Shown: positions 595 through 16,899, numbered from the stretch's first letter. The stretch is DNA of 56,568 bases from Geobacter sp. (GCA_031396605.1 JANNLB010000155.1:1-56568), one strand, 5' to 3'. Numbers and translations: made by a program. The notes: generated by a model from the sequence alone, not told the origin.

Positions 595-1332
595 ATGAAC
601 AATACGGAGCGCAAAGGCTGTGCTGCAGTATCCTGGCTCAAGAATGCCAAGAACATCCGGAAGCCATACGAAGACCGCTACCGACTGTTGAGCAAAGATA
701 TACCGTTGGTTGGCAAGTCGGGACGTGGCGAACTGTTTGCCGTGCTGGATGGTATCGGCGGGGCACCTCGGGGCATGCAGGCAGCTCAGGCGGTTGCCGA
801 TTGCCTTTTGGATTTCTACCGCAAACCGGAAGAAATTCCGGCTGACAACAATGGGTTGAATCAGCTTCTGCTTCAAGCAAACCAGGCAATTAATGACTGG
901 GGTTGTGTGGATGGTACGGACAGTCCACTGGGAGGGGCCGCTGGAACAATCGTCTGGATTCAAGAGCAAAGGCTGACGCTATTCCATGCCGGAGATACTG
1001 CCGGGATACTCATTCGCCAGAATCAGGCGCCACAAGTTCTTACCAGCGCACATGAATTAGATGGCGGAATTTCCCGCTACTTCGGTCTGGGACGAAGACT
1101 AGAAATCGAGGTGAAGTCGGAGCGACTGGAAGAGGGCGATTTGATCCTGCTCGTGTCGGACGGTGTCACAAAAGCATTCAGTACTACAGAGGCAGCTAAT
1201 CTCGTGCTGGAGATTTACAACAAGACCGGAGATATTGGCTTTGCAGCACAGGAATTGGTGACCCGGTCGCGCAGCAAGAAGTCGGTTGATGATATTACCG
1301 TGATGCTGATTGAGGTAGAAGAAGATGAGTGA
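595..1332 (+). CDS. PP2C-family Ser/Thr phosphatase-like protein
   Basis: 245 aa with PP2C/SpoIIE-type motifs FAVLDGIGGAPRG, LILLVSDGVTKAF and DDITVMLIEV. Its stop overlaps the next start (ATGAGTGA), suggesting translational coupling. Confidence 0.8.
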   Translation: MNNTERKGCAAVSWLKNAKNIRKPYEDRYRLLSKDIPLVGKSGRGELFAVLDGIGGAPRGMQAAQAVADCLLDFYRKPEEIPADNNGLNQLLLQANQAINDWGCVDGTDSPLGGAAGTIVWIQEQRLTLFHAGDTAGILIRQNQAPQVLTSAHELDGGISRYFGLGRRLEIEVKSERLEEGDLILLVSDGVTKAFSTTEAANLVLEIYNKTGDIGFAAQELVTRSRSKKSVDDITVMLIEVEEDE

Positions 1333-2797
1333 ATGGTTGCAGCAAGAGGTATGTCGTAGAATCGAACTCTATTGCATTGATATGGGCTATGCTGAAGCAC
1401 CTGGCGAGAATTCATTTATCCCAAAAGATGCTGTAACTACATTCGGAATTGCCAGTCACATAGCAAATGTTGTGGGCTGTACTCACTATGTTGTCGTAGC
1501 ACCGCGCGGTCATATCTACGGATACTTTTTCAAGCAGTTCGGTTGCAAGGTTATGGAAGTGTATGTTTCGCCCCATTCGGGTGACGTTCAGGTTATAGAT
1601 GACCTATCCAGCATAAGAAAGCGAAGGGTATTCATCATAGAAGATAATGTGGTGAGTGAAGCGGCACTCCCGTCGGTTGTAAATTCACTGTTGCCGTATG
1701 AACCGGCTGAGATATGCCTGTTTGTTGGTGACACAAACGGTGAAAGACACCTGGATAACGTTCCACCGGCAATTTCACAGGTGTTCCTTACTGATCAGAT
1801 TTACAATTTTATCAGTCCGGAACAGCTCGAAAAAGATTTTACCGCTTTTTTTGCATATCTTGTTCCTGCTGCTATTGCGAACACAAACGCAGAAGCCACG
1901 ATGCAACCGAAATGGGCCCAAACTTCATACAATATTGGGAAAACGCTGAAGCCCTTTTTCAAAAGACTTAAACAAGTATGGGAGAGTCGTGCGGAGATAG
2001 ATCATAAACGCTTTCGGAATAAGCCGGGTACTATTCGTGTTGGTCAGAACAACATTGCTGACAATACCAGCTTCCTTTATTTCATGATGAATCTCTTTAA
2101 GCCTGGTTGCATGAGCCATATCTCAGTACGGCCCGGTTTGGCCTTGCCTTTGTCACTAATGCTTCTCCTTAAATATTCCAGGGGTATTCAACAGGCTGAA
2201 AACAGAAAGAAAGCTCTATTTATATCGTTAACGCACCCGATAGAAATTGCTGAAAACGTGATGGCTCACTGCCTGCGAAGAAGCGTCAAGCCGATGTTAA
2301 ATGGCAAAATCCTCGATAGAGACTGGCCATATTTGACCCGTGCGGCTGGTGAAGTGTATGACCTCTGCATAGATTTTTGGAAAGAAGATGTTTTTTTCGA
2401 GACGGATTTTCTGAAGCATATTCTTCAGTCCTCAGAATGGCCTTACGGGCTTGTCGTGATTAATGATTCGACTGGCCGGTTGGAGGAGGACAGCTACGGC
2501 ACAATTAATCCGTTGCAGCAATTGAAAAGCATCCGATTGCTAGCAACAGCACTGAATATTCCTGTCATTGTTATAAATTCAAGCCTCCAAAAGGACGTTA
2601 TGGACACAGATGTTTTTGATCACATTGCACAACTTAGCGATGACGTGGACAGATACCAGTTGTTCATATCTAAATCAAATAAAAGTGCATACGGTAAATT
2701 GACCTTTGTTATGTCCCGGAAATGCAACATTCTTGAGGATGCCTTGTCTAACTTTACTCAGACAAAGCCGGCTAATTACAATTCATGGAGCGAATAG
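1325..2797 (+). CDS. Fusion protein: N-terminal phosphoribosyltransferase (PRTase)-like domain plus C-terminal RecA/DnaB-C/KaiC-like domain lacking a Walker A lysine
   Basis: 490 aa. PRTase-like segments are VVVAPRGHIYGYFFKQFG and the PRPP-loop-like RRVFIIEDNVVSEAAL. The C-terminal half has DnaB-C/RecA-like strands (ALFISLTHPIEIAENV, GLVVINDSTGRLEE, LNIPVIVINSSLQKD). The position expected for a P-loop reads VRPGLALPLSL. Domain calls come from motif recognition only. Confidence 0.5.
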   Translation: MSEWLQQEVCRRIELYCIDMGYAEAPGENSFIPKDAVTTFGIASHIANVVGCTHYVVVAPRGHIYGYFFKQFGCKVMEVYVSPHSGDVQVIDDLSSIRKRRVFIIEDNVVSEAALPSVVNSLLPYEPAEICLFVGDTNGERHLDNVPPAISQVFLTDQIYNFISPEQLEKDFTAFFAYLVPAAIANTNAEATMQPKWAQTSYNIGKTLKPFFKRLKQVWESRAEIDHKRFRNKPGTIRVGQNNIADNTSFLYFMMNLFKPGCMSHISVRPGLALPLSLMLLLKYSRGIQQAENRKKALFISLTHPIEIAENVMAHCLRRSVKPMLNGKILDRDWPYLTRAAGEVYDLCIDFWKEDVFFETDFLKHILQSSEWPYGLVVINDSTGRLEEDSYGTINPLQQLKSIRLLATALNIPVIVINSSLQKDVMDTDVFDHIAQLSDDVDRYQLFISKSNKSAYGKLTFVMSRKCNILEDALSNFTQTKPANYNSWSE

Positions 2798-3058
2798 ATG
2801 AAGATTTTCTGGATAGGACTTGGAATTATGGGTGTGATTCACATCAGTAGGGGTGTGTGCTCACTACGGTAACGTTCCAAAGGTTGTAACAATTGTTATC
2901 AATTGCGCCATTCCGGTCATAATAGCACTGGCGATAGCATTAGTTAATCACATGAGAAGGCAACTTGAGCTAATGACTGAAGATGATGGGGAATGATGTA
3001 GGCACCAGTGGAATAAATGACCTGCAAGGATGTTTCTGATGATTTTATGGAGTAATTG

Positions 3059-3547
3059 ATGTTTAAAGACGATTTTGAGATTGATTTTGTTGATGGGGAC
3101 CTGCTGGATTTTGTAGGTGATGCTATTGTGGTCAATACAAATATACGGCTGAATTTGAATTACACATTGGGAAAAGCCATTTTGGGAAAAGCTGGACAAC
3201 CCCTTGAAATTGAACTTCAAGATATTCTTCATGATCGCTTTTCTGAAAAGGATTTACCATTAGGGACGGCGATGAGCACGAATGCATACGGCATGTCGGA
3301 TCATGTCCGAAAATTAATTTTTGTGAGTTGGTGGAACCAGGACAACGAATATACGGTCAACCATATATTCAAGGTGCATGCTGCCGCTATTCGAGAGGCT
3401 GATGCATTGGGATTGCGCACTATTGCATTTCCCTTGATGGGAAGAGGTCATCGAGTGAAATACTCGATTATAGCGGAAGGTATTGCCAAGACGATCAATG
3501 AGCTGAACAAGCTTGAAAGCGGTTTTCGGTTGAGAAAGTTGCTTTAA
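3059..3547 (+). CDS. Macro domain protein (ADP-ribose binding/processing); the 3' end probably continues to 3615 after a -1 shift
   Basis: Macro motifs are GDAIVVNTN, GKAILGKAG and TIAFPLMGRG. A GGAG lies 6 nt upstream of the ATG at 3059. The annotated frame stops at 3547. The -1 frame from the T-run at 3523-3526 encodes FSVEKVALITLHKEDVENVRRLVEAKLILG, which looks like a typical Macro terminal strand plus helix. Confidence 0.8.
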   Translation: MFKDDFEIDFVDGDLLDFVGDAIVVNTNIRLNLNYTLGKAILGKAGQPLEIELQDILHDRFSEKDLPLGTAMSTNAYGMSDHVRKLIFVSWWNQDNEYTVNHIFKVHAAAIREADALGLRTIAFPLMGRGHRVKYSIIAEGIAKTINELNKLESGFRLRKLL

Positions 3548-3609
3548 TTACACTTCATAAAGAAGACGTAGAAAATGTAAGGCGATTGGTCGAGGCTAAA
3601 TTAATACTG

Positions 3610-3649
3610 GGGTGAAATGTCAGAAATCGCCGCTTCTGTCGTTATGAAT
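3610..3649 (+). repeat. Conserved 40-nt motif, copy 1 (GGGTGAAATGTCAGAAATC...TGTCGTTATGAAT)
   Basis: 36 of 40 nt are identical to 10520-10559. In both copies it begins at the stop codon of a Macro-type reading frame. Confidence 0.7.
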
Positions 3650-3671
3650 AGATGAATCCAATTCCCTCGGT

Positions 3672-4115
3672 ATGGAGGCACAAAATACGATGAATGTTAT
3701 TCAACACCACCTCAACAACATCTCTGAAAATAGCTCTTCTTCCCCATCACCACTGACAAATGAAGGCATGTTTGTGGTAGCCATAGTACTTGAGATTCTG
3801 ATGGCTCATAATCGTTATGTTGACCAGCCATACACACGGGAAGACATTAACGATACGATTGAATCCTTACCAAGGTTTCAAATAAAATGGCTCCTCAGCA
3901 TTATTAAGTCACTCAAGACGAAAAAGCATTCACGGGTAAGGCAAAACCTTCTCGCAATTACTCTGCAGAAAACCCCGGAACCGGTTCTTACAATTGATTT
4001 GTCGAACTACCTCCGCATCAACTATTTCAATACGTTCATAAAATTGTTTGTCGGGCTCACTGATTGTAAGTTGCAGGAAGTTGGCAAATATCGATATTTG
4101 GTGACATCGTGGTGA
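3672..4115 (+). CDS. Hypothetical protein (ORFan)
   Basis: 147-aa ORF in operon orientation. An alternative start is ATG 3690, which has a GGAGG upstream. I recognise no motif. Confidence 0.5.
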   Translation: MEAQNTMNVIQHHLNNISENSSSSPSPLTNEGMFVVAIVLEILMAHNRYVDQPYTREDINDTIESLPRFQIKWLLSIIKSLKTKKHSRVRQNLLAITLQKTPEPVLTIDLSNYLRINYFNTFIKLFVGLTDCKLQEVGKYRYLVTSW

Positions 4116-4178
4116 CGTCGTGTAATTTTCGCAAACGAATGGCTGAAGTCTAACCGTAGTGAAATTTGTGAGGTGTGT

Positions 4179-4829
4179 ATGGGATGCTCATTTTATTATA
4201 AAGGTTGCCTTAAGGATCATAAAGCGCAGGAAGAGGTCATCGAGTTGGCAGCTCAACTTGCTGGAGATCATGGATTCATGGTTCTCCCGGATAGTAACAA
4301 AAAATATCTGGCGAGGATCGGATTAGACTCGAACCTTCTGGAAGATGGCAGTTATACCCAGAGTTCAGGAATCACGGACCCGTCATGTGGGTTTGATTTC
4401 TATGGAATAAGTTTCTATGGAAATCCGCTTCAGAATGATCATAGTTCTGTGCCGGATCAATTAATATTTCATCGTTGTCAGCTAGGCTCTCTCGCTTATA
4501 TGGAAAATAGAGAGGGAATGATAGTTTCATTAGCCTTGAAACAACTTCAGCAATACTCGCCCCCAGAATATGACGATACTATGGTTTATGACGGCCCTCT
4601 CTTGCATGTCGCTAGCGGCGGTGAATTTAGATGTGGAGGAGGAGCAAAGTTTGCATTGCTTCTTAATTTGATAAAATTACGCTGGATGCCTGATCTTGAT
4701 ATGTTTGATGATTATGGCAATTGCGACAGCATGGAAAGAATTATCCATCACCATCGGCTGGCTGGCAAATTTTCAAAAAAATCGATGTCATTTGAGGAGT
4801 GCTGGGAAATGGTTGAAGGTTTATTGTAA
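4179..4829 (+). CDS. Hypothetical protein (ORFan, Cys-rich N-terminus)
   Basis: The ORF track gives 4173-4829. ATG 4179 has a GAGG 6 nt upstream. I recognise no family. Confidence 0.55.
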   Translation: MGCSFYYKGCLKDHKAQEEVIELAAQLAGDHGFMVLPDSNKKYLARIGLDSNLLEDGSYTQSSGITDPSCGFDFYGISFYGNPLQNDHSSVPDQLIFHRCQLGSLAYMENREGMIVSLALKQLQQYSPPEYDDTMVYDGPLLHVASGGEFRCGGGAKFALLLNLIKLRWMPDLDMFDDYGNCDSMERIIHHHRLAGKFSKKSMSFEECWEMVEGLL

Positions 4830-4901
4830 TTTCCTCTGTCGAACATTTCCTCTTTTATCGTTAAAGATTATGAGATTTTAGGCTGGACCGAGTAGGAGAG
4901 T

Positions 4902-6071
4902 ATGCTTGTGAAGATAAGCGTGATGATATTCCTCCTCTTTTCTATGTACAGACATTCCCATGCATATGAAATCCGGAGTCCAATCGAAAAGGCCGAGGCT
5001 GGATCGGCTACGGTTGAGATGCTTGCGGATGCGATAAACGGTAATTTCGACAACAAGAATTTCAACTTTGACATAAACACAGGGGTTGATCTGACTTATT
5101 GGAATCCTGGTTTCGATGAAGATAAAGTTGTAAAATTCACCACCGAAGGGATGAAAACATATCACGTTGGTGCAAATTTTACCTACAACGACAAATCCAT
5201 GCTGGCCTTGCAATATGAAAGGCCTTTTGACGGGACAAAAAACCAGTTAGAGATCTTCAAGGCCAATATGAAACAGAATTCCGGCATTGAACGGTTCACC
5301 GGAGAGGTAAAACTCGACCCTCTCGCCGATCTCCTGTTTCCGGACAGTCTGCTGCTGAGAAAAATACTTTCCGTTGAATACAGATACTCAAGGGAACGCT
5401 TCTTTGGTGAGGTTACCGCTCAAAGAGAAATTGCGTACATTCCGAAAGATGCGATCGTTGACCACGTCAAGAGAACGATAACAGGAAGCAAATCCGTTTC
5501 TGCCGGGGAAAAACTGGATTTCAGGACTGAATTTATAAACCAGGAAATATCCATCCCTTTGGTGAGCCTGGATATGAAGAAAACCGTAAACTATAACGGG
5601 AGGGTGGAGAAGATAAGTTTCTTCCGGGAGGACTTCAGGGTGGGTTACTTCAATTTCCAGTGGAGCAGACCCTCCCATGGTACTGACGACACCCTCGCCG
5701 GCAAGCCGATCATCAGTGACACTACCTTCAAGTCACAAGGATATTATCTTTCCTTTGAGACTCAGGACCCCGGTTCTCCGGGATTTAACCTTGATTGGCT
5801 GGTACGAATTGGGCTAGGCGGCGAGGTGGACAATGCCTTTCACTATAATAAATCTGATGTGTCTTTTGTCGGCATGAGTATAAATACTTGGTACAATCAC
5901 TACTTCAACAGCAGGAATGGAGGTCCTGCAGCAACCTTCGGATTCCTCTTCGATTGGAGGCGCATGAATGTGGATGAGAAAACAACTGAAGCATCAACCA
6001 GCACTGTTCGGATTATGAATGAGCAGGAGAAACTCTATAAGGTCTACCTGAACCTCATCTATCGATTTTGA
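4902..6071 (+). CDS. Putative outer-membrane beta-barrel protein
   Basis: It has an N-terminal signal peptide (MLVKISVMIFLLFSMYRHSHA), an alternating aromatic/hydrophilic pattern, and a C-terminal LNLIYRF ending in Phe, which is the OMP signature. An AGGAG RBS is present. Confidence 0.6.
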   Translation: MLVKISVMIFLLFSMYRHSHAYEIRSPIEKAEAGSATVEMLADAINGNFDNKNFNFDINTGVDLTYWNPGFDEDKVVKFTTEGMKTYHVGANFTYNDKSMLALQYERPFDGTKNQLEIFKANMKQNSGIERFTGEVKLDPLADLLFPDSLLLRKILSVEYRYSRERFFGEVTAQREIAYIPKDAIVDHVKRTITGSKSVSAGEKLDFRTEFINQEISIPLVSLDMKKTVNYNGRVEKISFFREDFRVGYFNFQWSRPSHGTDDTLAGKPIISDTTFKSQGYYLSFETQDPGSPGFNLDWLVRIGLGGEVDNAFHYNKSDVSFVGMSINTWYNHYFNSRNGGPAATFGFLFDWRRMNVDEKTTEASTSTVRIMNEQEKLYKVYLNLIYRF

Positions 6072-6204
6072 GGAGAGTTTTCCGTTATTGAGTTATATCA
6101 GCATCTGCGCTGAGAAATAAATATCAGTTCCTGTTTGTCAGGATTTTCGCTTTCCATCGTTATTAGATGGCAGGCGAAACAAACGATAAAACAGGAGGGC
6201 GCAG

Positions 6205-7128
6205 ATGTCACACAATAGTCAGATTGTCAGGGAGATTGAAGAGTTCAAGGTTTTTGTAAAAACGGCCGGATCAGTCCCGGAAGCCGAGTTCGACATTGAA
6301 TTTCATAGTAGGCTCTGGAATATCGAAAAACTTGCCCGCCGGGAACCAGAAAATCGCAAGTCGTTGATGGCTGACTTCCTGGCATCAACGACATCAGAAT
6401 TCGAGGTCGGGCTCATGAGCTGCCACAGCAGAACCAAGCCTTTGGGGTATGCCGGCGACCATATCCTTATCGACATGATTTACCAGAAGACTGTTGCCAA
6501 TACAGAGGCGGGCAGGAGGATGGATGAATTCTTCCATCGCCAGAAAGCCCCCGCTGCAGTTCGCAACCGCAAGAGCTTTTTCATCGAAACATTCGTTGAA
6601 CTGTGCCAGAAAAAAGCTTCTCCATCGATTTTTGATATCGCCTGCGGTCCTTGCAGGGATGTGGCTGAGGCTCTTGAGGAAGCTGGCGATACGGCGGAAG
6701 GCGCCTCATTCCATTGCGTCGATATGGACCCGCGTGCGATTGCGTATGCCCAGTCGGTTGTAGATCCTTGCAGAGCTACCCAAATCTGCTGGCAGGTAAC
6801 TGATGTGTTCCGTCTTCGCACCAGGAAAAAACATGATCTTGCCTGGTCAGCCGGACTGTTCGATTATCTCAATGACCGGTTGGCTGCTGCTCTGCTCCGC
6901 AAGATGTGGGATGCGACAGTAGAAGGCGGAGAAGTCATCGTCGGCAATTTTCACACATCCAATCCAGACCGTGCCTGGATGGAGTGGTGCGGCGATTGGC
7001 ACCTTATTCACCGGGATGAGGAGGACATGCTCTATCTTTGTCACCGGGCTGGAGTACCGACGGATTCGATCCGATTCCATTACGAATTGACTGGCATAAA
7101 CATGTTTCTGAGGATATCGAAGGATTAA
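6205..7128 (+). CDS. Class I SAM-dependent methyltransferase with an extra N-terminal domain
   Basis: Motif I is IFDIACGPCRDV, followed by the acidic loop HCVDMD and post-I/II strands. An AGGAGG RBS is present. Confidence 0.8.
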   Translation: MSHNSQIVREIEEFKVFVKTAGSVPEAEFDIEFHSRLWNIEKLARREPENRKSLMADFLASTTSEFEVGLMSCHSRTKPLGYAGDHILIDMIYQKTVANTEAGRRMDEFFHRQKAPAAVRNRKSFFIETFVELCQKKASPSIFDIACGPCRDVAEALEEAGDTAEGASFHCVDMDPRAIAYAQSVVDPCRATQICWQVTDVFRLRTRKKHDLAWSAGLFDYLNDRLAAALLRKMWDATVEGGEVIVGNFHTSNPDRAWMEWCGDWHLIHRDEEDMLYLCHRAGVPTDSIRFHYELTGINMFLRISKD

Positions 7129-7157
7129 GTGACTTCGAAAAGGAGAGAAGTGGATTC

Positions 7158-7580
7158 ATGCTGAGAATTCTACTGATTGAAGATGATAACGGACGTGTCA
7201 GGATAATAAGGGAATGGTTGCCTGAGGATGTGCGTTTGGTGCACGCTGGCAGCGCCGGTCGCGCCATTGGCATTCTACAGCGAGACCGTGATGCCTACGC
7301 CGGAATTATGCTCGATCATGACCTGCAAGGTCAGGTCGCAACCGATATGGACTTCTTTCTTTCCGGCAGCAATGTGGTGAAGACAATCATTGCAAATGTC
7401 CCTTCTGACACGCCTGTTCTGGTTCACTCAATGAATCCTGAAGAAGCACCGAAGATGGTTATGACACTGACAAAATCAGGATTTAGCGTTACCCGCCACC
7501 CCATGAGTGTGTTGACAAAAGAATGTCTTGATGAGTGGCTGCAGGAAGTCCGTGAATGCTGGGACAGCCGTGACGAATGA
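7158..7580 (+). CDS. Stand-alone divergent receiver (CheY-like) domain protein, copy 1
   Basis: The start is ATG 7158, after AGGAGA. REC landmarks are LLIEDD, MLDHDL (acceptor Asp position) and VLVHS. It is a paralogue of 11172-11591. From memory it resembles the family described as the cyclic-phosphate processing receiver (cREC); this needs an HMM check. Confidence 0.7.
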   Translation: MLRILLIEDDNGRVRIIREWLPEDVRLVHAGSAGRAIGILQRDRDAYAGIMLDHDLQGQVATDMDFFLSGSNVVKTIIANVPSDTPVLVHSMNPEEAPKMVMTLTKSGFSVTRHPMSVLTKECLDEWLQEVRECWDSRDE

Positions 7581-7787
7581 GGTGTTCAGAGTGACGCCCT
7601 GGCAAATTCGGATTTTGTGTTTTCGTGCATTGCTCATTATGACAACCTTAATCTTATTGAGCGGCCACGTAACTGAAGTTGCTGGGCATCGGACAAAAAC
7701 GTAGGTTTATTCAAGTCGCAAATGTGCTCATCGAAGGATTGTGCCGTTGTAATCGCAAATAGTAATGGTCACGAGGAGTGGTTAATT

Positions 7788-8573
7788 ATGGATGAGCATT
7801 CCGATACAAGCCGATTAAACAAACAACGGCTTGTTATGACCCTATGCGGATTCTTTGTTTCATCGACCACAGTAATTGATTGGTACTTGAATGCGCCTCT
7901 CCGTATTTTGCCACTCAGTGAGGAAGAATATTTACGTTACCCGTATCTGTATTTAATTGTAAAACCCATACAAGTTATTGCTACGCCCGATCTAATTGCT
8001 TACTGGTGGATGGTCGTGCTGGTTGCGGGGTGGATGTTTATCCTTGGATTCATATCAGCAAAGATAGTTATTACCATTTATCAATCCAGATTTATCGCGA
8101 CCCAGAATGTCTATCTGAAAACCATTGCCATGGCAGGTCTGATAATTGGTCTTAGTGCCGGATATTTTCTGCTAATTGCTGCATACATGCTCCCATTAGT
8201 CTGGAAAATCTATATGTCCATTGTAACCGCCATGCTCACGTTTATTGGTACCTATTTGGTGTTTCGCTCTCCCTATCATTTGTATCTTTGGTGGAAAACA
8301 GAAAAGGTTTTACACCTGCTGTCTGCGCCGGCAAAGGTATTTACGGAACTCGGATACGGGAATTCGACTTTCCTCAGTACTGAAATCGAGCTGCCAGACG
8401 GGCGGGAGTATCGCCAAGCCTGTTTCGTCAGCATGAGGGTTGAAGGAGTGTATCTCCGTGTCTGGATGGGAACTCGTGTCTTTATTCTTTCAAGTCGAGA
8501 TGGGCTAAAAATACAGAGAAAAGACCGAAAAGCATTCAAAATATTGGTTGGCATTCATGGCCACGCGCAATAA
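7788..8573 (+). CDS. Multi-pass membrane protein with a soluble C-terminal domain
   Basis: The ORF track gives 7722-8573. ATG 7788 has a GAGGAG upstream. There are 4-6 hydrophobic helices (e.g. WWMVVLVAGWMFILGFISAKIVITI, LIIGLSAGYFLLIAAYMLPLVW). Confidence 0.6.
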   Translation: MDEHSDTSRLNKQRLVMTLCGFFVSSTTVIDWYLNAPLRILPLSEEEYLRYPYLYLIVKPIQVIATPDLIAYWWMVVLVAGWMFILGFISAKIVITIYQSRFIATQNVYLKTIAMAGLIIGLSAGYFLLIAAYMLPLVWKIYMSIVTAMLTFIGTYLVFRSPYHLYLWWKTEKVLHLLSAPAKVFTELGYGNSTFLSTEIELPDGREYRQACFVSMRVEGVYLRVWMGTRVFILSSRDGLKIQRKDRKAFKILVGIHGHAQ

Positions 8574-10299
8574 TGGCCGGGGTTTGTTTATGCGCACGGA
8601 TCTTAAACACATATTACGACCAGAGAATGGGCCTTCGCTCCGGACAAAGCTCTGGTGGCTCAGCTGGAATAATTACCAGTCACCACTTCCGACAAAGGGT
8701 TTCCTGGCTGGCGGTGCGGTTGCAAGCTTGGTACTTTCTGAAGCCTGGGGTGGAAATTTTCCGATCAACGATCTGGATGTATTTTTAACCGATTCAGAAA
8801 AAACAGATCCTCCCGCAACACCAGTACGCATAACCGGGATCGCTCTTGATAACCAGGTAGAAGACGATGAATACCAGGGGAGGTACAATGTTCGCAACAG
8901 GGGCTATCAGGTAGTCAACTCGGACCGCATTGATTTGATTAATACGGTGTCTGTTCGGATGCTGGAAGATGAACTGCCCGTTCTCGCCGCATACAGGTTC
9001 ATTCTCCAGGGTTTTGATCTCAACTGTTGCCAGATCGGTATTGACCTGGAGAGCGATCAACTGATATGGACACCGGAATTTGAAGAATTTGTCGCAACCG
9101 GCCAGTTGAAGGTTACCCATCTTGCAACCCCTTACCACACAGCTATCAGGCTGGCTAAGAAACAAGGCGAGCTTAATTGTTACTGCGACTTGAAAACAGA
9201 GCTCTCTCTTCTGACTACATATGTCGATATGGTGTCGGCTCTCGGTCGCAGCAACAGAAATAATGTAATGTATTCCCGATTTTTCGGGAAAAAGTATCAC
9301 GAAACGTATCTCTGTCATCAAAATTCACTTGAACCCTATTGCATTGTTTTTCCTGGAACCAATCAACTCCTGCTGCCAGGCACTGGGATTCCGACGCCTG
9401 ATTACTACAGCATGGAATTAAATGTTCCATCTGCTTATCAGGAATTGAGGCCGTATTTCTATATATACGGTGGCCTGCAACTCAGCAGTGTCAGTATGCT
9501 CCAAATGTTTGACAAAATCTGCCGCCCAACCACCCGATCCGTTACTCGGCGCAAATTTGTAACTGCTATTAAGTTAGGAGGACTGGCTGCAATCTGCGCT
9601 ATTCAAAACAGTGGCTTTCTGGATTGCAATCATCATCACAAGAACTTTAAAAAGCTTGAACAATTTGCTAGAGAGCATTTTGGCGTTATCTGCCTGTTTA
9701 ATCGACTTGGCTTGAATTTTTCAGAGCAGTTGCAGGCGATTCGCACCATCGGATGTTCTGTCAAAAAGCACGGATTGTTCGTCATCGGGCTGCTGGAAGA
9801 CAGTAATAACGTGATACTGCGGGAAGCAACCGAGTTATCTGAGGAGTTGATAGAGCACGTTGTCAGTGATTTCAGAAGAAGTGTCTCAGCCACACAACTG
9901 GTGTCGCCTGTAAATTTGTCCGGTTTCCCCCGAAAACACCTGGCAATTGTTATTGAGCTTGTCAATGCCCAGCAGTTAGAAGAGGAAGGCATAAAACAAC
10001 ACCATTGTGTAGGGGGGTACATAGATGCGATCCAATCCGGAAAATGCCGGATATTTCACCTGGAGTACCTTGGAGAATCGACAACTTTACAGATATTACG
10101 GAGCGGCAAATGTGGAGAGCACCGGGCACGCTTTAACAGATTACCGCCTCCGGAGCATGTCACTTTAGCTGCCGAGCTGTCTGACTATATCCATATGCTG
10201 AATTCAGACGTGGAAGCTGATTATGGGCAGGCTTTGCTGGATTCCATGCCCTATCATGGGGGTGATATTAATGACATTGTAAATCAGATTGAAGCCTGA
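8548..10299 (+). CDS. Large protein with an N-terminal nucleotidyltransferase-fold-like region and a C-terminal PcfJ-like domain
   Basis: The N-terminus has FLAGGAVASLV...INDLDVFL (a GG...DxD pattern) and FDLNCCQIG. The C-terminus has LEEEGIKQHHCVGGYIDAIQSGKCRIFHL, which is typical of PcfJ-like proteins. The start is uncertain: 8548 TTG, 8557 ATG or 8590 ATG. Confidence 0.5.
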   Translation: MAFMATRNNGRGLFMRTDLKHILRPENGPSLRTKLWWLSWNNYQSPLPTKGFLAGGAVASLVLSEAWGGNFPINDLDVFLTDSEKTDPPATPVRITGIALDNQVEDDEYQGRYNVRNRGYQVVNSDRIDLINTVSVRMLEDELPVLAAYRFILQGFDLNCCQIGIDLESDQLIWTPEFEEFVATGQLKVTHLATPYHTAIRLAKKQGELNCYCDLKTELSLLTTYVDMVSALGRSNRNNVMYSRFFGKKYHETYLCHQNSLEPYCIVFPGTNQLLLPGTGIPTPDYYSMELNVPSAYQELRPYFYIYGGLQLSSVSMLQMFDKICRPTTRSVTRRKFVTAIKLGGLAAICAIQNSGFLDCNHHHKNFKKLEQFAREHFGVICLFNRLGLNFSEQLQAIRTIGCSVKKHGLFVIGLLEDSNNVILREATELSEELIEHVVSDFRRSVSATQLVSPVNLSGFPRKHLAIVIELVNAQQLEEEGIKQHHCVGGYIDAIQSGKCRIFHLEYLGESTTLQILRSGKCGEHRARFNRLPPPEHVTLAAELSDYIHMLNSDVEADYGQALLDSMPYHGGDINDIVNQIEA

Positions 10300-10525
10300 A
10301 AAGGCTTTTCTGTGTCATGATTTCACCATCGGTGTACCGCTCTTCGGGTCTGACACCGGCGGGCTCAGCGCCGAGGACTCCCGCATTGCCATCTGCGAAG
10401 CCATGAAATCGCACTTTAAGAACAACCGGGAATTGCTCATCAGTCAGATATTGATCGTCAACAAGAAACCGGATGTCTGCAACACAGTGAAGTTGATTCT
10501 GGGACGTCATTTTGTATTTGGGTGA
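10283..10525 (+). pseudogene. Remnant encoding only the C-terminal half of a second Macro domain
   Basis: The translation DFTIGVPLFGSDTGGLSAEDSRIAICEAM...ISQILIVNKKPDVCNTVKLIL aligns by eye with TIAFPLMGRGHRVKYSIIAEGIAKTI...KVALITLHKEDVENV of the 3059-3615 Macro gene. The frame opens only at 10283, directly after a stop. Third codon positions are GC-rich in this frame. Confidence 0.5.
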
Positions 10526-10559
10526 AATGTCAGAAATCACTTCTTGTGTCGTTATGAAT
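10520..10559 (+). repeat. Conserved 40-nt motif, copy 2
   Basis: 36 of 40 nt are identical to 3610-3649, and it again starts at the stop codon (GGG TGA) of the Macro-type frame. Confidence 0.7.
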
Positions 10560-10665
10560 CAGAGTAGTCAATTCTGACAACATTGAGGCGGGCCAGATAA
10601 AAGTGACGATCAACATGAATTTTGAACAGGTGAGTATAAAGTATAAGTAAATTAGGGGGTGAATC

Positions 10666-11091
10666 ATGAAGTTAAGAGTACCAATGCTTGAATCAGTTTG
10701 TTATGTAGCCGAGAATGTTCCAAAGCGATGCAGAGACCTCTTTCATATCGAACTGGATTTTTCGGTAGAAAGCATTGAACACCTTGAAGGGATCATTGAA
10801 TCTTTTCCTCGTGGTGATGAACCAACAATACTGGAAAAATTGAACGAACCACTGGTAGCCATAGGGTGTTATGTCGGTGAAGTAATTCGCAGGAATTTCG
10901 GCGGTGAGTGGCAAGACACTTCAAGTGTTAATGGTTTTCCAATTGGCATCAAGCTGGGAAGTACATATCTGAACCCTATCGACAAGGTTATAAGGCGCTA
11001 CAAAGAAGGGAGTGAACACAATTTGACCGATTATGTGAAGTTCTCTTTATTGATGAAGGTAACTTTCGATAAAAATAGTATGACATTGTAG
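10666..11091 (+). CDS. Hypothetical protein
   Basis: 141-aa ORF with a GGGGGTG RBS. The pattern FSVESIEHLEGII...AIGCYVGEVIRRNFGGEW is reminiscent of small immunity/DUF-type proteins, but I cannot assign a family. Confidence 0.5.
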   Translation: MKLRVPMLESVCYVAENVPKRCRDLFHIELDFSVESIEHLEGIIESFPRGDEPTILEKLNEPLVAIGCYVGEVIRRNFGGEWQDTSSVNGFPIGIKLGSTYLNPIDKVIRRYKEGSEHNLTDYVKFSLLMKVTFDKNSMTL

Positions 11092-11171
11092 AAATCAAGA
11101 ATGTCATAAATCATCATATATGTCGTTTGAATAAGCTGGAAGGTTCAACTTCGTGAAAAGAAAGGAACCTC

Positions 11172-11591
11172 ATGATTCGAATTCTGCTTATCGAAGACGA
11201 CAATGGACGTGTCAGAACAATCAGGGAATGGTTGCCTGAAGATGTTCGTCTGGTACACGCCGGCAGCGCCGGTCGCGCAATCGGTATTCTCCAGAGAGAC
11301 CGTAATGCCTATGCCGGGATCATGTTGGATCATGACCTGCAAGGTCAGGTCGCAACCGATATGGACTTCTTTCTTTCCGGCAGCAATGTGATGAGGACAA
11401 TTATTGCAAATGTCCCTTCCGACACACCTGTTCTGGTTCACTCCATGATTCCCGCAGATGCTCCGAAAATGATTATGGCACTGACAAAATCCGGTTTCAG
11501 CGTTACACGCCTCCCAATGTGTGTTTTGACGAATGAGAACTTTAGCCAGTGGCTGGAAGAGGTGAGAGAAGTCTGGGCGGATCGGGAATGA
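11172..11591 (+). CDS. Stand-alone divergent receiver (CheY-like) domain protein, copy 2
   Basis: 139 aa and highly similar to 7158-7580, including a 63-nt block of perfect nucleotide identity (11328-11390 equals 7313-7375). Confidence 0.7.
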   Translation: MIRILLIEDDNGRVRTIREWLPEDVRLVHAGSAGRAIGILQRDRNAYAGIMLDHDLQGQVATDMDFFLSGSNVMRTIIANVPSDTPVLVHSMIPADAPKMIMALTKSGFSVTRLPMCVLTNENFSQWLEEVREVWADRE

Positions 11592-11609
11592 CGGAGGAGA
11601 TGGGTTGAG

Positions 11610-12551
11610 ATGAAAATAATCAGTGCTTCGCGACGAACAGATATCCCACAGTTCTACTCAGCCTGGTTCAAGGAGCGTCGCAAATCTGGCTTCGCTGAAT
11701 ACCGTACAGTTTATGGCGGTGGTAAAGACGGCAAGTTTAGGGTTTCCTTGAAAAATGAGGACGTTATCGGGTACCTGTTTTGGACAAAATTTGCCGGGCC
11801 GTTTCATGAGCAGTTGGAGGCCTTGCGGTCAGAAGGAATGCCGTATGTATTCCAGTATACCCTTACAGGATATGGCAAAGAGATCCAGCCTGGAATACCG
11901 GAACGTTCAGCAGCTATTGATGACTTCCTGCGGGTTTCTGTAGATCTACCCGCAGCAACAGCAATCCAGTGGCGATACGATCCGATTCTGGTGTCGCCGC
12001 GCTACAACATTGACTGGCACCGAAACAATTTTGAACAGATCGCGGAACAACTACAAGGATCTACTCGTGTGGTGAACGTTAGCTTTGTCGAACCGTATCT
12101 GAAAGCGATAACAAAGGCACCGGATTGGCGCGATATTCGGTGGCGAAAGCCAGATCCGATTCGCCACAAAACAGCCCTCAGCAAATATCCTGAAATCCGT
12201 GCCATCGGTGCTGAGGAGGATGTATTACTGTCTGACCTGGCTGAAATTGCCAGACAGCGAGGTATAGAACTGCGGGTCTGCTGTAATCGTGAACATGATG
12301 GACGGTTTCCGACAGCAGCGTGTTGCGGTTTGGAGCTTTTCCAAGCATACGGCACTGAATTGAATAAACGTGTTGCCGATCTTGCACCTGGCCCCTCACG
12401 TCCAGGTTGTCGGTGCCTGAAGACTGTTGATATCGGTATGGATACTACGTGCCCCGGAGGATGTTTCTATTGCTATGTCACAACCTCACTGGAACGCGCC
12501 CGATTGAATTATGAGAAACATGATCCGGCAGCCTCAATGATGAGATCGTGA
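11610..12551 (+). CDS. DUF1848 family protein (C-terminal Cys cluster, probable Fe-S)
   Basis: The N-terminus is IISASRRTDIPQFYSAWF and the C-terminus is CRCLKTVDIGMDTTCPGGCFYCY, as I remember for DUF1848. It starts 18 nt after the receiver gene. Confidence 0.7.
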   Translation: MKIISASRRTDIPQFYSAWFKERRKSGFAEYRTVYGGGKDGKFRVSLKNEDVIGYLFWTKFAGPFHEQLEALRSEGMPYVFQYTLTGYGKEIQPGIPERSAAIDDFLRVSVDLPAATAIQWRYDPILVSPRYNIDWHRNNFEQIAEQLQGSTRVVNVSFVEPYLKAITKAPDWRDIRWRKPDPIRHKTALSKYPEIRAIGAEEDVLLSDLAEIARQRGIELRVCCNREHDGRFPTAACCGLELFQAYGTELNKRVADLAPGPSRPGCRCLKTVDIGMDTTCPGGCFYCYVTTSLERARLNYEKHDPAASMMRS

Positions 12552-12567
12552 TTTGTTCTGAAATATA

Positions 12568-12603
12568 CAGGGACAGGAACGGCAGATGTCACTGCCGTCC
12601 CTG
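12568..12603. terminator. Hairpin between convergent genes (possible bidirectional terminator)
   Basis: The sequence CAGGG-ACAGGA-ACGGCAG [ATGTCA] CTGCCGT-CCCTG gives a 7+5 bp stem with a bulge. It sits between the 12551 (+) and 12622 (-) stops. Confidence 0.45.
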
Positions 12604-12621
12604 CTCTTAAGGCACATGGAG

Positions 12622-13065
12622 TTACGCTGTTGGCTCGACAACAGCCGTTTTTGATGCAGCAGGAGCCTTGACAGCGATCCCCTTTTTCACTTTTCCCTTT
12701 TCCTCTGCCTCGCCAAGCGGATTCGTGAACCCGCGCGGCGGTCTGTAATCCCACCCCATCTCCTTGCACATTTCAGCGTTCAGGAGATTGATTTCCTCTT
12801 TGATTTTCTGACTACGCTCGATGAATTCCTGAGCCTTTTCGAACTTGATGTTCTTATTCCGCCCCATGTTCATCCGCAACTGGTAGAGGACATTATCGAG
12901 GGTGTTGAGCATACCGATGAAGTCGCTCTGGTCCATGGTCTTCCGGGATATGACGTCTATGTCGTCCCGATTCACCTTTTCCAGCTTCCGTTCCTGCCAC
13001 GTCTTACCTCCTGAAGGTTTATTGCCTCCCTGTCCATCATTGGCTTGCTTACTCTTGTCAGTCAT
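12622..13065 (-). CDS. Hypothetical protein at the distal end of the transfer operon
   Basis: ATG 13065 is preceded by AGGAAAGGAG. The protein is charged and probably coiled-coil. No family recognised. Confidence 0.5.
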   Translation of the reverse strand: MTDKSKQANDGQGGNKPSGGKTWQERKLEKVNRDDIDVISRKTMDQSDFIGMLNTLDNVLYQLRMNMGRNKNIKFEKAQEFIERSQKIKEEINLLNAEMCKEMGWDYRPPRGFTNPLGEAEEKGKVKKGIAVKAPAASKTAVVEPTA

Positions 13066-14605: not shown

Positions 14606-15445
14606 TCACTGCTGGTCGAGGTTCGACGGCCTCTTCCTGACATCGAAGCCGCCTCCCTTCTGGAAGTCGTACAGGCTGAAATCCTCCGGGGTGATCTCGC
14701 CTTTCAGGAGGCGCACCGCCCGGTATGTCTTGTCCTCGATCTCCTCGGCAGTTATCAGTCCGCTTGAGACAGGGAAGGAGTTCTGGTTACCCTTCTGGAT
14801 CAGGATCATGGCCGGCGTTATTTCGATACCGAACCTTCCGGCAAGGCCTGAATTCTCCTCGATGTTGATCCTCTTCACTTGCCAGCCGGTGGCATTGGTG
14901 AACCAGTCGATGATTGGCTGCTGCTGCTGGCAGTAGCCGCAGTCATTCTTGTAGAAATAGATCAGGGCGAACTCCTCCCTGTTGTCACGAAGCTTCCTGG
15001 TTTTTTCCTCCTGTATCTGGCCGACCCGGCTGAGATTGCCGGGGGTGGCAATCGGATAATCCTTGGCGGTGGTCAGCTCGGGGTATTTCTGCCAGACGTA
15101 CTGGGCGACGTTGGTGAACGCCAGGGCCTTTTTCCGGGCTATCTCCTGGACCTCGTAGTACTCCTTGACGTTCTCCTCGGACGGGTTCTGTACCGCCTTC
15201 CTCTTCAAGCCTTCGGCGAACTTCTCGAAGTCATCCGGGTGCATGTTCCAGATCTCGTCATAGGAGTAGTCCGAAAGCGCCGGCGCCTTCTTCGACTTTG
15301 TCTTTTTCCGCTCCGCCCCCTTTTCCTCCTTCTTGTCAGGCTCCTTCTGATACCACCACCATCCCTTACCCGAATCGGTGTAGTAACCGGCGCCAGCCGT
15401 AGCGGCAAAGGAGAGGAGAAGCAGGGCTGCGATTATATGACGCAC
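14606..15445 (-). CDS. traF: F-type conjugal transfer protein TraF (thioredoxin-fold)
   Basis: A GTG start at 15445 follows GGAGGAGG and gives the signal peptide MRHIIAALLLLSFAATAGA. GKGWWWYQKEP and a thioredoxin-like C-terminal half with CGYC match TraF. Confidence 0.8.
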   Translation of the reverse strand: MRHIIAALLLLSFAATAGAGYYTDSGKGWWWYQKEPDKKEEKGAERKKTKSKKAPALSDYSYDEIWNMHPDDFEKFAEGLKRKAVQNPSEENVKEYYEVQEIARKKALAFTNVAQYVWQKYPELTTAKDYPIATPGNLSRVGQIQEEKTRKLRDNREEFALIYFYKNDCGYCQQQQPIIDWFTNATGWQVKRINIEENSGLAGRFGIEITPAMILIQKGNQNSFPVSSGLITAEEIEDKTYRAVRLLKGEITPEDFSLYDFQKGGGFDVRKRPSNLDQQ

Positions 15446-16899
15446 GTTTCGACCTCCTCCTGCTTTGCTCTGATCTCCCTGACCATCTTCCGCAGCCGGG
15501 AAGACTTCTTCTCTTCGAGAGACGCATCCGTCTCGCCGAAGGCTTGCACCCTGAACGGCACGAGGAGCACAGTGAAGCCTTTTCCGGCGCCGGTGACGAC
15601 AGTTGTCTGGGTCGTGTAATATTTCGCGGCCACATACTCTGTGGCGATGGCGTCTTTTACCTTGCTCAGTTCCCATACGACCGTGTAGAGGATGTTTCTT
15701 TTCGCCCCTTCATCGGCTTCGGCCGCGAGGAGCGCCGGGTCTTTGCCGCTTACCTCCTTGAGGGCGCTCCACAGTCCGTCCGGGTGTGCGAAGACGACTC
15801 CAAGGTTTGTCGAGACCGCCGCCCAGCGTAGCCCTCCGGGAGATTCTTCCAGCTGGTTGATTCTTTTCTTTACCGCTGACAGGATCGCGTCGGCGTCGAA
15901 CCAGGACGGCAGTACCTGCGTAACAGGGGGGGGGAACTCCTGAGATTCAATCTCTCCCAACGGATGTTCCCGTTCATCTACAGGTGACTTGGTTCTCTTC
16001 ATGTCCGGCTTTTCCGTGATCGCGAGAGGATCAGTTTTTTGGGGTGAGCCGCTCCCTGTTTTTGCCGAGGTCTTGTCACGGTCAATCACCGCGCCGATGA
16101 GTGCGGCCAATTCCTCCTTGCGCACTTCCTGGTCGCAATGCTTGAGCAGATCCGTCAACTGGTTGTCCGGCTTCAGTGTGTGATGTCCTCTGACGATCCG
16201 GTCGAGTTCTCCCCGGTTGGCCAGGGAAGCGTATTCAGTAATCCTGTTGAGAACGACCACGGATATGAGCGGGTGATCTCCGGTGGAGTACAGCTTGTCA
16301 TGGTAGGACGGAATCTTGCCGATGTCGTGGGCGAGGGAGACGATCAGGATATCCGGCAGCATGACCTCCTGGTTGATTTTCGCCGCGCACTTCCTCGCCA
16401 CCTTGAGGGTGTGCCGGAAAAGCGGGATCGTAGCCAGCAGGGCGAAGGTCTCTTCCGGGAATTTATTTTCCGCTTCCTTATCGTTCTTCCTGACCACCGA
16501 CGGACAATCACCTTCTTCGTCGAGCATTTTTAGGAGTCGGACGATGATCGTCCTGCGGGCCCCTTTAATGGTGCGTCGCTTCTCTACCATGTCGGAAAAG
16601 AACTTCTCTACTTCTCCGTTCCTGAAGGTCGGGCGGGGCAGGGGGGGTGCTGTCTTTTCCGGTTCCGGCTCACGCCAGAGCATGGCCATGTCCCGGAGGT
16701 TGACAACATCGCCGCTCAACGCTTTGTTCTCGTTGAGTTTCCAGGTCCTGCTCACTTCGGCCAGGGTCTTTTCCTCGTCCTCTTCGTGGAGAGGCTCCAT
16801 CATGAGCTTCTCTTTCCCATCCTGACCGAAAAGGTTTCTGGCCGCATAGGTCACGAGTCCGGTCCCGATGATGGCCGCTGCGAGGAACAAATCGTTCAT
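15433..16899 (-). CDS. HD-domain protein with an N-terminal hydrophobic helix; possible MOBH-type relaxase
   Basis: HD motifs are LAHDIGKIP, GDHPL and VRGHH. The N-terminal helix is LFLAAAIIGTGLVTYAA. It lies directly downstream of the T4CP-like ATPase. The relaxase assignment is inference. Confidence 0.5.
   Translation of the reverse strand: MNDLFLAAAIIGTGLVTYAARNLFGQDGKEKLMMEPLHEEDEEKTLAEVSRTWKLNENKALSGDVVNLRDMAMLWREPEPEKTAPPLPRPTFRNGEVEKFFSDMVEKRRTIKGARRTIIVRLLKMLDEEGDCPSVVRKNDKEAENKFPEETFALLATIPLFRHTLKVARKCAAKINQEVMLPDILIVSLAHDIGKIPSYHDKLYSTGDHPLISVVVLNRITEYASLANRGELDRIVRGHHTLKPDNQLTDLLKHCDQEVRKEELAALIGAVIDRDKTSAKTGSGSPQKTDPLAITEKPDMKRTKSPVDEREHPLGEIESQEFPPPVTQVLPSWFDADAILSAVKKRINQLEESPGGLRWAAVSTNLGVVFAHPDGLWSALKEVSGKDPALLAAEADEGAKRNILYTVVWELSKVKDAIATEYVAAKYYTTQTTVVTGAGKGFTVLLVPFRVQAFGETDASLEEKKSSRLRKMVREIRAKQEEVETCVI

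Follow-up and report, generated by a model that had tools for sequence, protein, structure and literature searches.

Putative eraser and repair enzymes and a recurrent pre-gene element in the cargo region of an integrative conjugative element from Geobacter

Positions 3,059 to 12,551 of a 56,568-nucleotide stretch of Geobacter sp. DNA (GCA_031396605.1 JANNLB010000155.1:1-56568; the whole stretch is referred to below as the window) carry genes for a Macro-domain protein, an S-adenosylmethionine (SAM) methyltransferase, two receiver-like proteins (cREC1 and cREC2), a PcfJ-like protein and a DUF1848 protein, and the question raised by this locus is whether these genes constitute one system or a collection of separately acting parts. 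The initial annotation, generated from the sequence alone, had read the block as two diverged copies of a module leading from Macro to receiver, and had suggested that the products jointly make or remove a ribose-phosphate-type modification or signal. The explanation that we prefer, with moderate confidence, is that the block is a set of accessory genes on a conjugative element which code for eraser and repair enzymes each acting on its own, and that this set is reshuffled at a pre-gene element with secondary structure.

The most conserved units of the array are two tight gene pairs, methyltransferase–cREC and cREC–DUF1848. The simplest description of the window is that a segment of ∼3.6 kb, comprising the genes for a DUF3977 protein, a nucleotidyltransferase (NTase)/PcfJ fusion and a short Macro-derived protein (mini-Macro), the junction element and orf141, separates the two pairs. 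The clade of cREC was surveyed in 8 annotated contexts and 37 genome loci (related loci are given below by L numbers), and neighbours were counted as 138 same-strand genes within 2.6 kb at 36 non-redundant loci. The commonest neighbour families were DUF1848 (6), SAM methyltransferase (5), Nudix (4) and PP2C (4); a further group, neighbour cluster 5, was discarded as a gene-calling artefact consisting of antisense open reading frames (ORFs) over cREC. Eleven loci have a cREC with an identity of 60% or more to that of the window, and 9 of these 11 contain DUF1848. A methyltransferase directly precedes cREC in L007 and L008 (81–85% amino acid identity, 28–29 nt between the called genes) and lies near cREC with another ORF in between in L010, L014 and L029, while the cREC–DUF1848 spacing of 18–19 nt is also found in L001 and L014. 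Close relatives (Desulfuromonadales, Geobacter-type metagenome-assembled genomes) share the succession of a VirB4/TraC-like ATPase, ClpP, variable genes and cREC. The cREC relatives at 40–56% identity have other neighbours, and in Elusimicrobia and other, distant phyla (including L055 and L056) DUF1848 genes at 60–70% identity stand by themselves in the chromosome. The cREC clade was represented by 1 locus in viral contigs versus 37 in genomes. Judged from these comparisons, the linkage of cREC is real, but limited to a single family of conjugative elements of the Desulfuromonadales type.

The remaining genes behave differently. Macro-like ORFs were detected by a phmmer scan of ∼38 loci only in the window, L030 and L054, PcfJ-like genes only in the window, L014 and L054, and neither Macro nor any kinase family was among the 25 commonest neighbour families of the 36 loci. 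Thus, of the partners expected to recur with receiver homologues, DUF1848 does recur, in one element lineage only, whereas Macro and PcfJ are rare and the phosphoribosyltransferase call is unsupported (see below), and the notion of a coherent, conserved multi-gene system was not borne out. As separate observations, a TIR/NB-ARC/TPR protein is encoded upstream in L054 (1–2423) and Wadjet JetABC beside cREC in L004 (13110–18984).

The features of the array and its 5′ flank are as follows (positions in the window; aa, amino acids).

7–522, ClpP gene; the window starts inside it
595–1332, plus strand, PP2C-type phosphatase, backbone-proximal, after ClpP (Pfam PP2C, PP2C_2 and SpoIIE)
1325–2797, plus strand, 490-aa fusion protein whose two halves are separate genes in relatives
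3056–3615, plus strand, Macro-domain gene with a 1-nt deletion, open frame ending at 3547 (Pfam Macro PF01661, E 5e-8)
3616–3692, plus strand, junction element copy 1 (covariance model 80.3 bits, E about 1e-14; aligned with the L014 and L050–L053 copies)
3687–4115, plus strand, orf147 family, conserved hypothetical protein, start revised to the ATG at 3687 (homologues in L014 and L053)
4173–4829, plus strand, orf218 family, conserved hypothetical protein (homologues in L011, L014, L016 and L032)
4902–6071, plus strand, 389-aa protein (p389) with a signal-peptide-like N-terminus (homologue in L054)
6205–7128, plus strand, class I SAM methyltransferase, 29 nt upstream of cREC1 (Pfam Methyltransf_25, _12 and _31)
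7158–7580, plus strand, cREC1, receiver-like protein (PF20274, 33.1 bits)
7722–8573, plus strand, membrane protein with C-terminal DUF3977 (Pfam, E 1e-9)
8548–10299, plus strand, 583-aa fusion of a class II NTase-fold N-terminal part (predicted fold) and a PcfJ-like C-terminal part (Pfam PcfJ, residues 468–507)
10289–10525, plus strand, mini-Macro (the former ‘Macro remnant’), 78 aa, its start overlapping the NTase/PcfJ stop (similarity to the L054 Macro C-terminus)
10526–10602, plus strand, junction element copy 2 (covariance model 71.7 bits)
10666–11091, plus strand, orf141 family, conserved hypothetical protein (homologues in L054 and L053)
11172–11591, plus strand, cREC2, receiver-like protein, 18 nt upstream of DUF1848 (PF20274, 27.0 bits)
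11610–12551, plus strand, DUF1848 protein (Pfam, E 9e-63)

The gene order and most of the domain calls of the initial annotation (Macro, SAM methyltransferase, two receivers, membrane protein, PcfJ protein and DUF1848) were upheld by Pfam. From 595 to 12551 the plus strand forms an unbroken run of co-directional ORFs, and the array as a whole consists of ∼15 such genes of low G+C content with short intergenic gaps, followed by the only terminator-like site found in a terminator scan, a hairpin at 12626–12645 behind the DUF1848 gene. It is bordered on the 5′ side by ClpP and PP2C and on the 3′ side by a convergent TraH/TraF/coupling-protein block, in which minus-strand genes for TraH, TraF, an HD-domain protein, the coupling protein and SLT are followed by AbiEi/AbiEii and a tyrosine integrase (Pfam); TraH, TraF, the coupling protein, SLT, AbiE and the integrase all lie at 13–23 kb in the window. 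Past the integrase lie chromosomal genes encoding sensor kinases, GlnD, a XerD-like protein and LysRS. Since transfer genes, an integrase and then chromosomal genes follow in this order, the block represents variable cargo, the accessory part of an integrative conjugative element from a bacterium of the Desulfuromonadales type. The G+C content of the cargo is 41–50% versus 56–57% in the transfer genes. No plasmid was matched by positions 2800–12800 in a megablast search against plasmids, no Rfam family was found over positions 1–24000 at E≤1, no tRNA gene was detected by a tRNA scan, and promoter-like sites in the block were no commoner than in shuffled sequences.

Both receivers matched PF20274 (cREC_REC, gathering cut-off 27 bits), cREC1 with 33.1 bits and cREC2 with 27.0 bits, exactly at the cut-off and hence borderline. 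Neither matched the classical Response_reg family (PF00072) at E≤0.01, and an output domain was also absent from both. In an alignment of 34 homologues, E8, D9, H54, D55, H90 and S91 were invariant and D53 nearly so; homologues of cREC1 (n=134) are mostly metagenomic. No histidine kinase was found beside cREC in the eight annotated contexts, and the kinases present at 26–33 kb of the window sit beyond the integrase with PF00072 receivers of their own. The candidate role of a two-component response regulator was therefore rejected, as there is no PF00072 match at that threshold, no output domain and no adjoining kinase, and the earlier proposal that the receiver belongs to the family linked to cyclic phosphates, rather than being an ordinary CheY-like protein, held. 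Proteins of the cREC family have been predicted, on computational grounds only, to be metal-independent phosphoesterases for 2′,3′-cyclic RNA ends or ADP-ribose cyclic phosphate that work with RNA ligases, Nudix and Macro proteins; they are described there as never paired with histidine kinases and as experimentally uncharacterised (PMC7824862, PMC9503650). A full-text literature search retrieved no later work on cREC.

The phage and prophage neighbourhoods of NAD+/ADP-ribose and RNA-repair genes centred on cREC (Iyer et al. 2021, PMC7824862; Iyer et al. 2022, PMC9503650) are among the closest known counterparts of the array, with the same PF20274 domain and acidic residues, no histidine kinase, and Nudix, Macro-type and RNA-end enzymes as neighbours. 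They differ in that the present genes reside on an integrative conjugative element and belong to a clade nearly absent from viral contigs, that the commonest partners here (DUF1848, SAM methyltransferase and PP2C) lie outside the published network, and that sirtuin, KptA, 2H and RNA ligase are missing here.

The receiver gene is indeed duplicated, as the initial annotation had stated, by a 300-nt DNA repeat of 87% identity (84% at the protein level). The two copies fall into the same subclade of the family tree without being sisters, and their synonymous divergence (dS) is 0.81 with a ratio of nonsynonymous to synonymous divergence (dN/dS) of 0.12. A recent tandem duplication was ruled out by this dS and the non-sister placement, which indicate instead an old duplication or a separate acquisition, and both copies, which bear the signature of purifying selection, have been maintained. 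Tandem cREC pairs are present in L011 (3261–4132), L014 (9495–10420) and L015 (1492–2383), and comprise two deep clades; orthology of these pairs with the window copies was rejected, as they span both clades and the window copies belong to a single subclade. In L054 the first cREC (7706–8386) shifts frame part-way and the second (10816–11118) lacks the first ∼38 codons, the start being lost with 210 nt that are present in the window and deleted in L054.

The first Macro ORF stops at 3547, and another frame runs on to the TGA at 3613–3615. One nucleotide is absent from the A-run at 3516–3518, and when one A was restored a full-length macro domain protein of 186 aa resulted, whose residues 9–178 give full-length alignments to the solved macro domains TTHA0132 (E 9e-10) and AF1521. 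The frameshift is either a true mutation, making the gene a pseudogene, or a homopolymer sequencing error. The mini-Macro at 10289–10525 taken alone gave no Pfam match (E≤10), no PDB match by phmmer and no BLASTP match to the window Macro. Over 66 aa it shares 47% identity (E 3e-18) with the C-terminal end of a 189-aa protein in L054 (7130–7699) that Pfam assigns to Macro, and it therefore stems from the last third of such a domain. Its identity to the equivalent short ORF of that contig (10001–10345) is 81%, and its database homologues are likewise short ORFs of 86–116 aa. Its dN/dS relative to L054 (0.083) is as low as those of DUF1848 (0.085) and orf141 (0.070), so that, at the sequence level, it behaves as a maintained short gene and not as debris. 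The initial designation as a Macro remnant was thus correct as to origin and wrong as to state. The two Macro sequences of the window gave no mutual BLASTP alignment and come from different Macro lineages. In L014, a 186-aa ORF with a Macro-like N-terminal motif was considered as a further Macro and set aside, the match not being significant.

The family of the 583-aa NTase/PcfJ protein counts 968 clusters and keeps the same architecture of two domains throughout; of its 53 members scanned, 37 matched Pfam PcfJ and no other family. The AlphaFold2 model of the protein, built with a 53-sequence alignment, has a mean predicted local distance difference test (pLDDT) score of 88.3, and the best PDB matches of this model in Foldseek were class II tRNA nucleotidyltransferases of the A-adding and CCA-adding types (probability 0.99–1.0, E 4e-5), followed by poly(A)-polymerase-like proteins; the template modelling (TM) scores were low (0.2–0.29), in keeping with the presence of several domains. 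The conserved columns G51, G55, V58, N74, D75, D77 and F79, and F156, D157 and N159, fit the motifs of the NTase head (GG..V...NDxDxF; FDxN). No match to Pfam PolyA_pol and no PDB sequence match was obtained, and many phage ‘PcfJ-like’ proteins match the model structurally. A class II NTase fold (CCA-adding or poly(A)-polymerase-like) is therefore supported for the N-terminal half at the level of the predicted fold, in line with the initial NTase/PcfJ-like call. The protein resembles class II tRNA nucleotidyltransferases and poly(A) polymerases in its predicted fold and in GG...DxD and D-x-N motifs at corresponding places, and differs from them in its fusion to a PcfJ-like domain typical of phages and plasmids and in giving no sequence-model match.

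The DUF1848 protein, a putative Fe-S protein, has 2707 homologues in sequence clusters, among which C281, C285 and C288 are invariant and form a C-terminal CX3CX2C motif. Its AlphaFold2 model (pLDDT 88.8) gave weak, TIM-barrel-like structural matches in Foldseek, including the radical-SAM domain of Elp3 at a TM-score of 0.35; no Radical_SAM match was found in Pfam, and CX3CX2C, at residues 281–288, lies C-terminal. PADLOC matched the protein with its model RTasDUF1848 (E 1e-33), DUF1848 having been described as an accessory gene of UG25, defence-type fusions of methyltransferase and reverse transcriptase (10.1101/2021.12.02.470933). DUF1848 is thereby linked to a methyltransferase for a second time, and independently. 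The UG25 loci (Mestre et al., 10.1101/2021.12.02.470933) and the present array have in common DUF1848 and a SAM methyltransferase on a mobile or defence locus, and differ in that no reverse transcriptase is present here and the methyltransferase is a separate gene. The full-text literature search yielded no experimental characterisation of DUF1848 and no paper linking it with cREC.

The other products of the array are less readily classified. The 490-aa protein, upstream of the Macro gene and initially taken for a phosphoribosyltransferase, had no match in Pfam, NCBIfam, PHROGs or, by sequence, the PDB, and that label was dropped; its residues 5–177 match separate genes in L001 and L007, and its residues 245–472 separate genes in L007 and L010, the latter with a weak Pfam DnaB_C match. 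The partners of a ribose-phosphate or RNA-end character that are really there are Macro and the class II NTase fold, joined in relatives by Nudix and a DSP phosphatase. The 389-aa protein had no match in Pfam, NCBIfam or PHROGs, nor does family or structure support its labelling as an outer membrane protein barrel; a homologue of 30% identity is encoded just upstream of the Macro gene in L054. The three genes initially regarded as ORFans proved to have homologues in related elements at up to 92, 46 and 93% amino acid identity, respectively. That is, orf147, with no family match, is 92% identical to L014 5830–6249 and 91% to its L053 counterpart, orf218, also with no family match, is 26–46% identical to homologues in L011, L014 (two copies), L016 and L032, and orf141 is 93% identical to its L054 homologue (dN/dS 0.07) and 76% to that of L053. 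Homologues of the DUF3977 protein adjoin cREC in L010, L011 and L014.

The same families occur in a different order in L014, L053 and L054. The window reads Macro, [orf147, orf218, p389, methyltransferase], cREC1, [DUF3977], NTase/PcfJ, mini-Macro, orf141, cREC2 and DUF1848, and L054 reads p389-like, Macro, cREC-like, PcfJ-like, mini-Macro, orf141, truncated cREC and DUF1848. The order in L014 is PcfJ-like, Nudix, orf218-like, Macro tail, 186-aa ORF, DSP phosphatase (with a further, weak match to the ‘Swiss Army Knife’ phosphatases), HEAT protein and orf147, followed by zincin-like, orf218-like, methyltransferase, 115-aa ORF, cREC, cREC, DUF1848 and DUF3977-like. Because the two-unit layout recurs in one related contig, L054, the two-unit look of the window is an inherited arrangement rather than the outcome of a recent tandem duplication. 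The module initially described as present in two copies therefore stands as a layout; as a duplication at the DNA level it shrinks to the motif region and the receiver gene, the Macro sequences having no detectable mutual similarity. Around the two conserved pairs, Macro, NTase/PcfJ with mini-Macro, DUF3977, orf147, orf218 and orf141 are among the genes gained and lost between related elements.

Such exchange would take place at the junction element. The 40-nt motif reported initially does occur twice (3610–3649 and 10520–10559), with 0 matches expected in shuffles. A repeat finder extended the similarity around it to 75 nt at 73% identity, and at the DNA level only this ∼75-nt region and the receiver gene are duplicated in the window. 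When the window copies were aligned with two copies in L014 (5756–5832 and 6268–6344), the motif proved to be the 5′ part of a ∼65-nt unit extending from TGTCAGAAA to GGAGG just before the next start codon, and as ribosome-binding site and start line up with those of L014 in this alignment, the start of orf147 was moved to 3687. In total, 8 strong copies (window 2, L014 2, L050–L053 four) and 2–3 weak ones were collected, those of L050–L053 by a metagenome pattern scan and the weaker ones with a covariance model, and a shortened version lies at the same junction in L054. No copy was present in viral contigs, and the element is not in Rfam. Among the 8 strong copies the element is 76–100% identical, the upstream 80 nt are 49–65% identical, i.e. 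at noise level, and the downstream genes form three or four groups. A conserved unit with unrelated upstream flanks and few groups of downstream genes indicates that the element marks cassette junctions, and it may be the site at which recombination reshuffles the cargo cassettes.

In four relatives the element is predicted to fold into a hairpin of three helices (GCCTCT/GGAGGC, TGTCGT/ACGACA and GAATTG/CAATTC) which pairs the ribosome-binding site of the next gene, with −22 to −30 kcal/mol and z-scores of −4.6 to −8.2. Where stable, as in these relatives, the hairpin would hide that site. A predicted ORF of 11–16 codons (MSEIxxxVVMN), with an ATG or GTG start, extends over the left arm in 8 of 8 copies; in the window these mini-ORFs lie at 3617–3655 (MSEIAASVVMNR) and 10527–10577 (MSEITSCVVMNQSSQF) and start 1 nt past the Macro-type stop codon. 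The invariant 5′ TGTCAGAAA can alternatively pair with TTCT(CAC)GACA in the right arm, giving an alternative helix, and a 15-codon relic ORF follows element copy 2. No sigma-70 promoter was found in the element, and sigma-54 or extracytoplasmic-function-type spacings do not fit by eye. A Frpo-like single-strand promoter was rejected, the hairpin duplex of only ∼20 bp being too short for −35 and −10 boxes. Likewise, the block was rejected as an integron cassette array, since the sole integrase is of the phage type, 9 kb away and on the other strand, and the element as an integron attC site, since it precedes genes, includes the ribosome-binding site of each and occurs at only two junctions. Its closest analogue is the PeSL cassette of T4-type phages (Arbiol et al. 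2010, PMC2839356; Comeau et al. 2014, PMC4122927), likewise a short conserved intergenic stem-loop unit between variable genes with copies at breakpoints of gene gain, loss and replacement. PeSLs, however, consist of an early promoter and a terminator stem-loop and have phage hosts, whereas the present element, carried by a conjugative element, has no sigma-70 match and ends in a ribosome-binding site paired by its own hairpin.

These results are best accommodated by an array whose enzymes would act largely singly on nucleotide-based damage or signals met by the transferring element. In this array cREC would open 2′,3′-cyclic or ADP-ribose cyclic phosphates, as suggested by its family and the cited predictions, Macro would strip ADP-ribose groups, as its family implies, and the NTase might rebuild RNA 3′ ends. 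The dN/dS values of 0.07–0.12 for mini-Macro, orf141, DUF1848 and cREC1 versus cREC2 show that the genes are maintained. Several observations weigh against this explanation. The Macro gene as sequenced is frameshifted and broken at 3516–3518, and both window copies of the element lack the fold (z +0.7 for copy 1 and −0.7 for copy 2), so that part of the array may be decaying. Covariation of the hairpin was not significant among 7–9 distinct copies. The linkage is seen in one element lineage only, and shared descent is therefore not separable from selection for linkage. No known anti-defence family (ArdA, SSB, PsiB) was found in the block by Pfam, NCBIfam and PHROGs, and the defence-type genes near the cREC of relatives (TIR/NB-ARC in L054, Wadjet in L004) would fit a role in host defence.

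The strongest competitor, which we nevertheless consider unlikely, is a single coherent pathway in which one substrate would be processed in successive steps by Macro, cREC, NTase, methyltransferase and DUF1848, for instance a toxin-cut tRNA whose cyclic phosphate is opened by cREC, whose CCA is rebuilt by the NTase and whose end is capped by the methyltransferase, while Macro, with Nudix in relatives, clears ADP-ribose-phosphate by-products. The tight gene pairs with their preserved spacing speak for such a pathway, as do the single strand, short gaps and lone terminator-like site at the end; the predicted NTase fold is nearest to tRNA A-adding and CCA-adding enzymes, cREC is predicted to work with RNA ligases, Nudix and Macro (PMC7824862, PMC9503650), and L014 adds Nudix and the DSP phosphatase. 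However, RNA ligase, polynucleotide kinase, KptA/Tpt1, sirtuin and ADP-ribosyltransferase were not found among the block genes by Pfam and NCBIfam, and no block gene matched the NCBIfam model for Hen1, which also distinguishes the block from RNA repair cassettes (Pnkp/Hen1, RtcB), there being no ligase, kinase or Hen1 match. Moreover, the gene set shifts from locus to locus, with Macro and PcfJ in 3 loci each, the window Macro is frameshifted and DUF1848 stands alone elsewhere.

A combined interpretation, somewhat more doubtful still, would make (a) methyltransferase–cREC–DUF1848 an unrecognised three-enzyme module of conjugative elements and (b) the ∼65-nt element a new cis-regulatory RNA family. 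Under part (a) the module may repair or chemically mark nucleic-acid ends; DUF1848 would then be a radical-SAM-like enzyme with a circular permutation, and cREC the first phosphoesterase known to have a receiver fold. Under part (b) the hairpin may keep the cargo untranslated until a trigger arrives, such as translation of the 11-codon leader over the left arm, and the element may double as a homology patch by which cassettes are shuffled between elements.

It is improbable that the block is a defence island of benefit to the host, in which the enzymes would regulate or form anti-phage systems, e.g. by resetting NAD-derived or cyclic-nucleotide signals. The AbiEi/AbiEii pair adjoining the integrase, the accessory role of DUF1848 in UG25 systems (10.1101/2021.12.02.470933), and the TIR/NB-ARC/TPR protein upstream in L054 and JetABC beside the L004 cREC are consistent with defence, whereas the families of the block are mostly hydrolases and erasers and the window contains no sensor/effector pair, TIR, reverse transcriptase or nuclease partner. 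PADLOC, in agreement with the initial inability to match the ensemble to a named system, recognized no named defence system in the block, its matches being limited to the DUF1848 model on its own and, in part, a mad2-like methyltransferase. Least probable is a decaying mosaic of hitch-hiking genes and fragments devoid of present function, whose ‘modules’ would be accidents of illegitimate recombination, for in spite of the frameshifted and truncated Macro sequences, the two degraded window hairpins, the 15-codon relic ORF after element copy 2 and the damage to both L054 cREC copies, the long intact ORFs are conserved over several contigs and mini-Macro, orf141, DUF1848 and both cREC genes are under strong purifying selection (dN/dS 0.07–0.12).

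The array of putative eraser and repair enzymes thus belongs to a kind already known in two respects, as a cREC-centred neighbourhood and as an accessory or counter-defence island on a mobile element; new are its location on a conjugative element, the recurrence of DUF1848 and a methyltransferase as partners, the predicted NTase fold of this PcfJ family, the maintained mini-Macro and the junction hairpin. With the anti-defence islands of leading regions (Samuel et al. 2024, PMC11541004) it shares a series of small co-directional accessory genes, one of them for a methyltransferase, carried by a conjugative element, a content that varies between relatives and a plausible role in establishment in a new host. 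It differs from them in that no known anti-defence, SSB or PsiB family and no Frpo-like promoter is present, and oriT, relaxase and transferred strand were not identified. For cREC and DUF1848, both widespread, this family of elements supplies a reproducible context on conjugative elements, and the company of methyltransferase, Nudix, Macro, PP2C and a CCA-adding-like NTase suggests cyclic-phosphate RNA ends and ADP-ribose derivatives as substrates. The locus also shows how cargo may be reshuffled at a short structured element ahead of genes. If the enzymes do act as erasers or repairers, such arrays would help to explain how conjugative elements establish themselves in hosts with RNA-cleaving or NAD-based immunity.

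Further observations concern the borders of the array. The AbiEi/AbiEii toxin–antitoxin pair (19992–21699 and 21696–23054) adjoins the tyrosine integrase at the junction with the chromosomal genes. Apart from a 488-aa HD-domain protein encoded between the coupling protein and TraF (15433–16899, minus strand), which may be a MOBH-like relaxase, no oriT or relaxase was identified in the window. At the opposite end, the ClpP gene (7–522) in which the window begins has counterparts in L001, L007 and L008 that directly follow the VirB4/TraC-like ATPase and are usually followed in turn by PP2C, and the PP2C gene at 595–1332 is 82–83% identical to genes in L001 and L008 that are located after the VirB4/TraC-like ATPase and ClpP.

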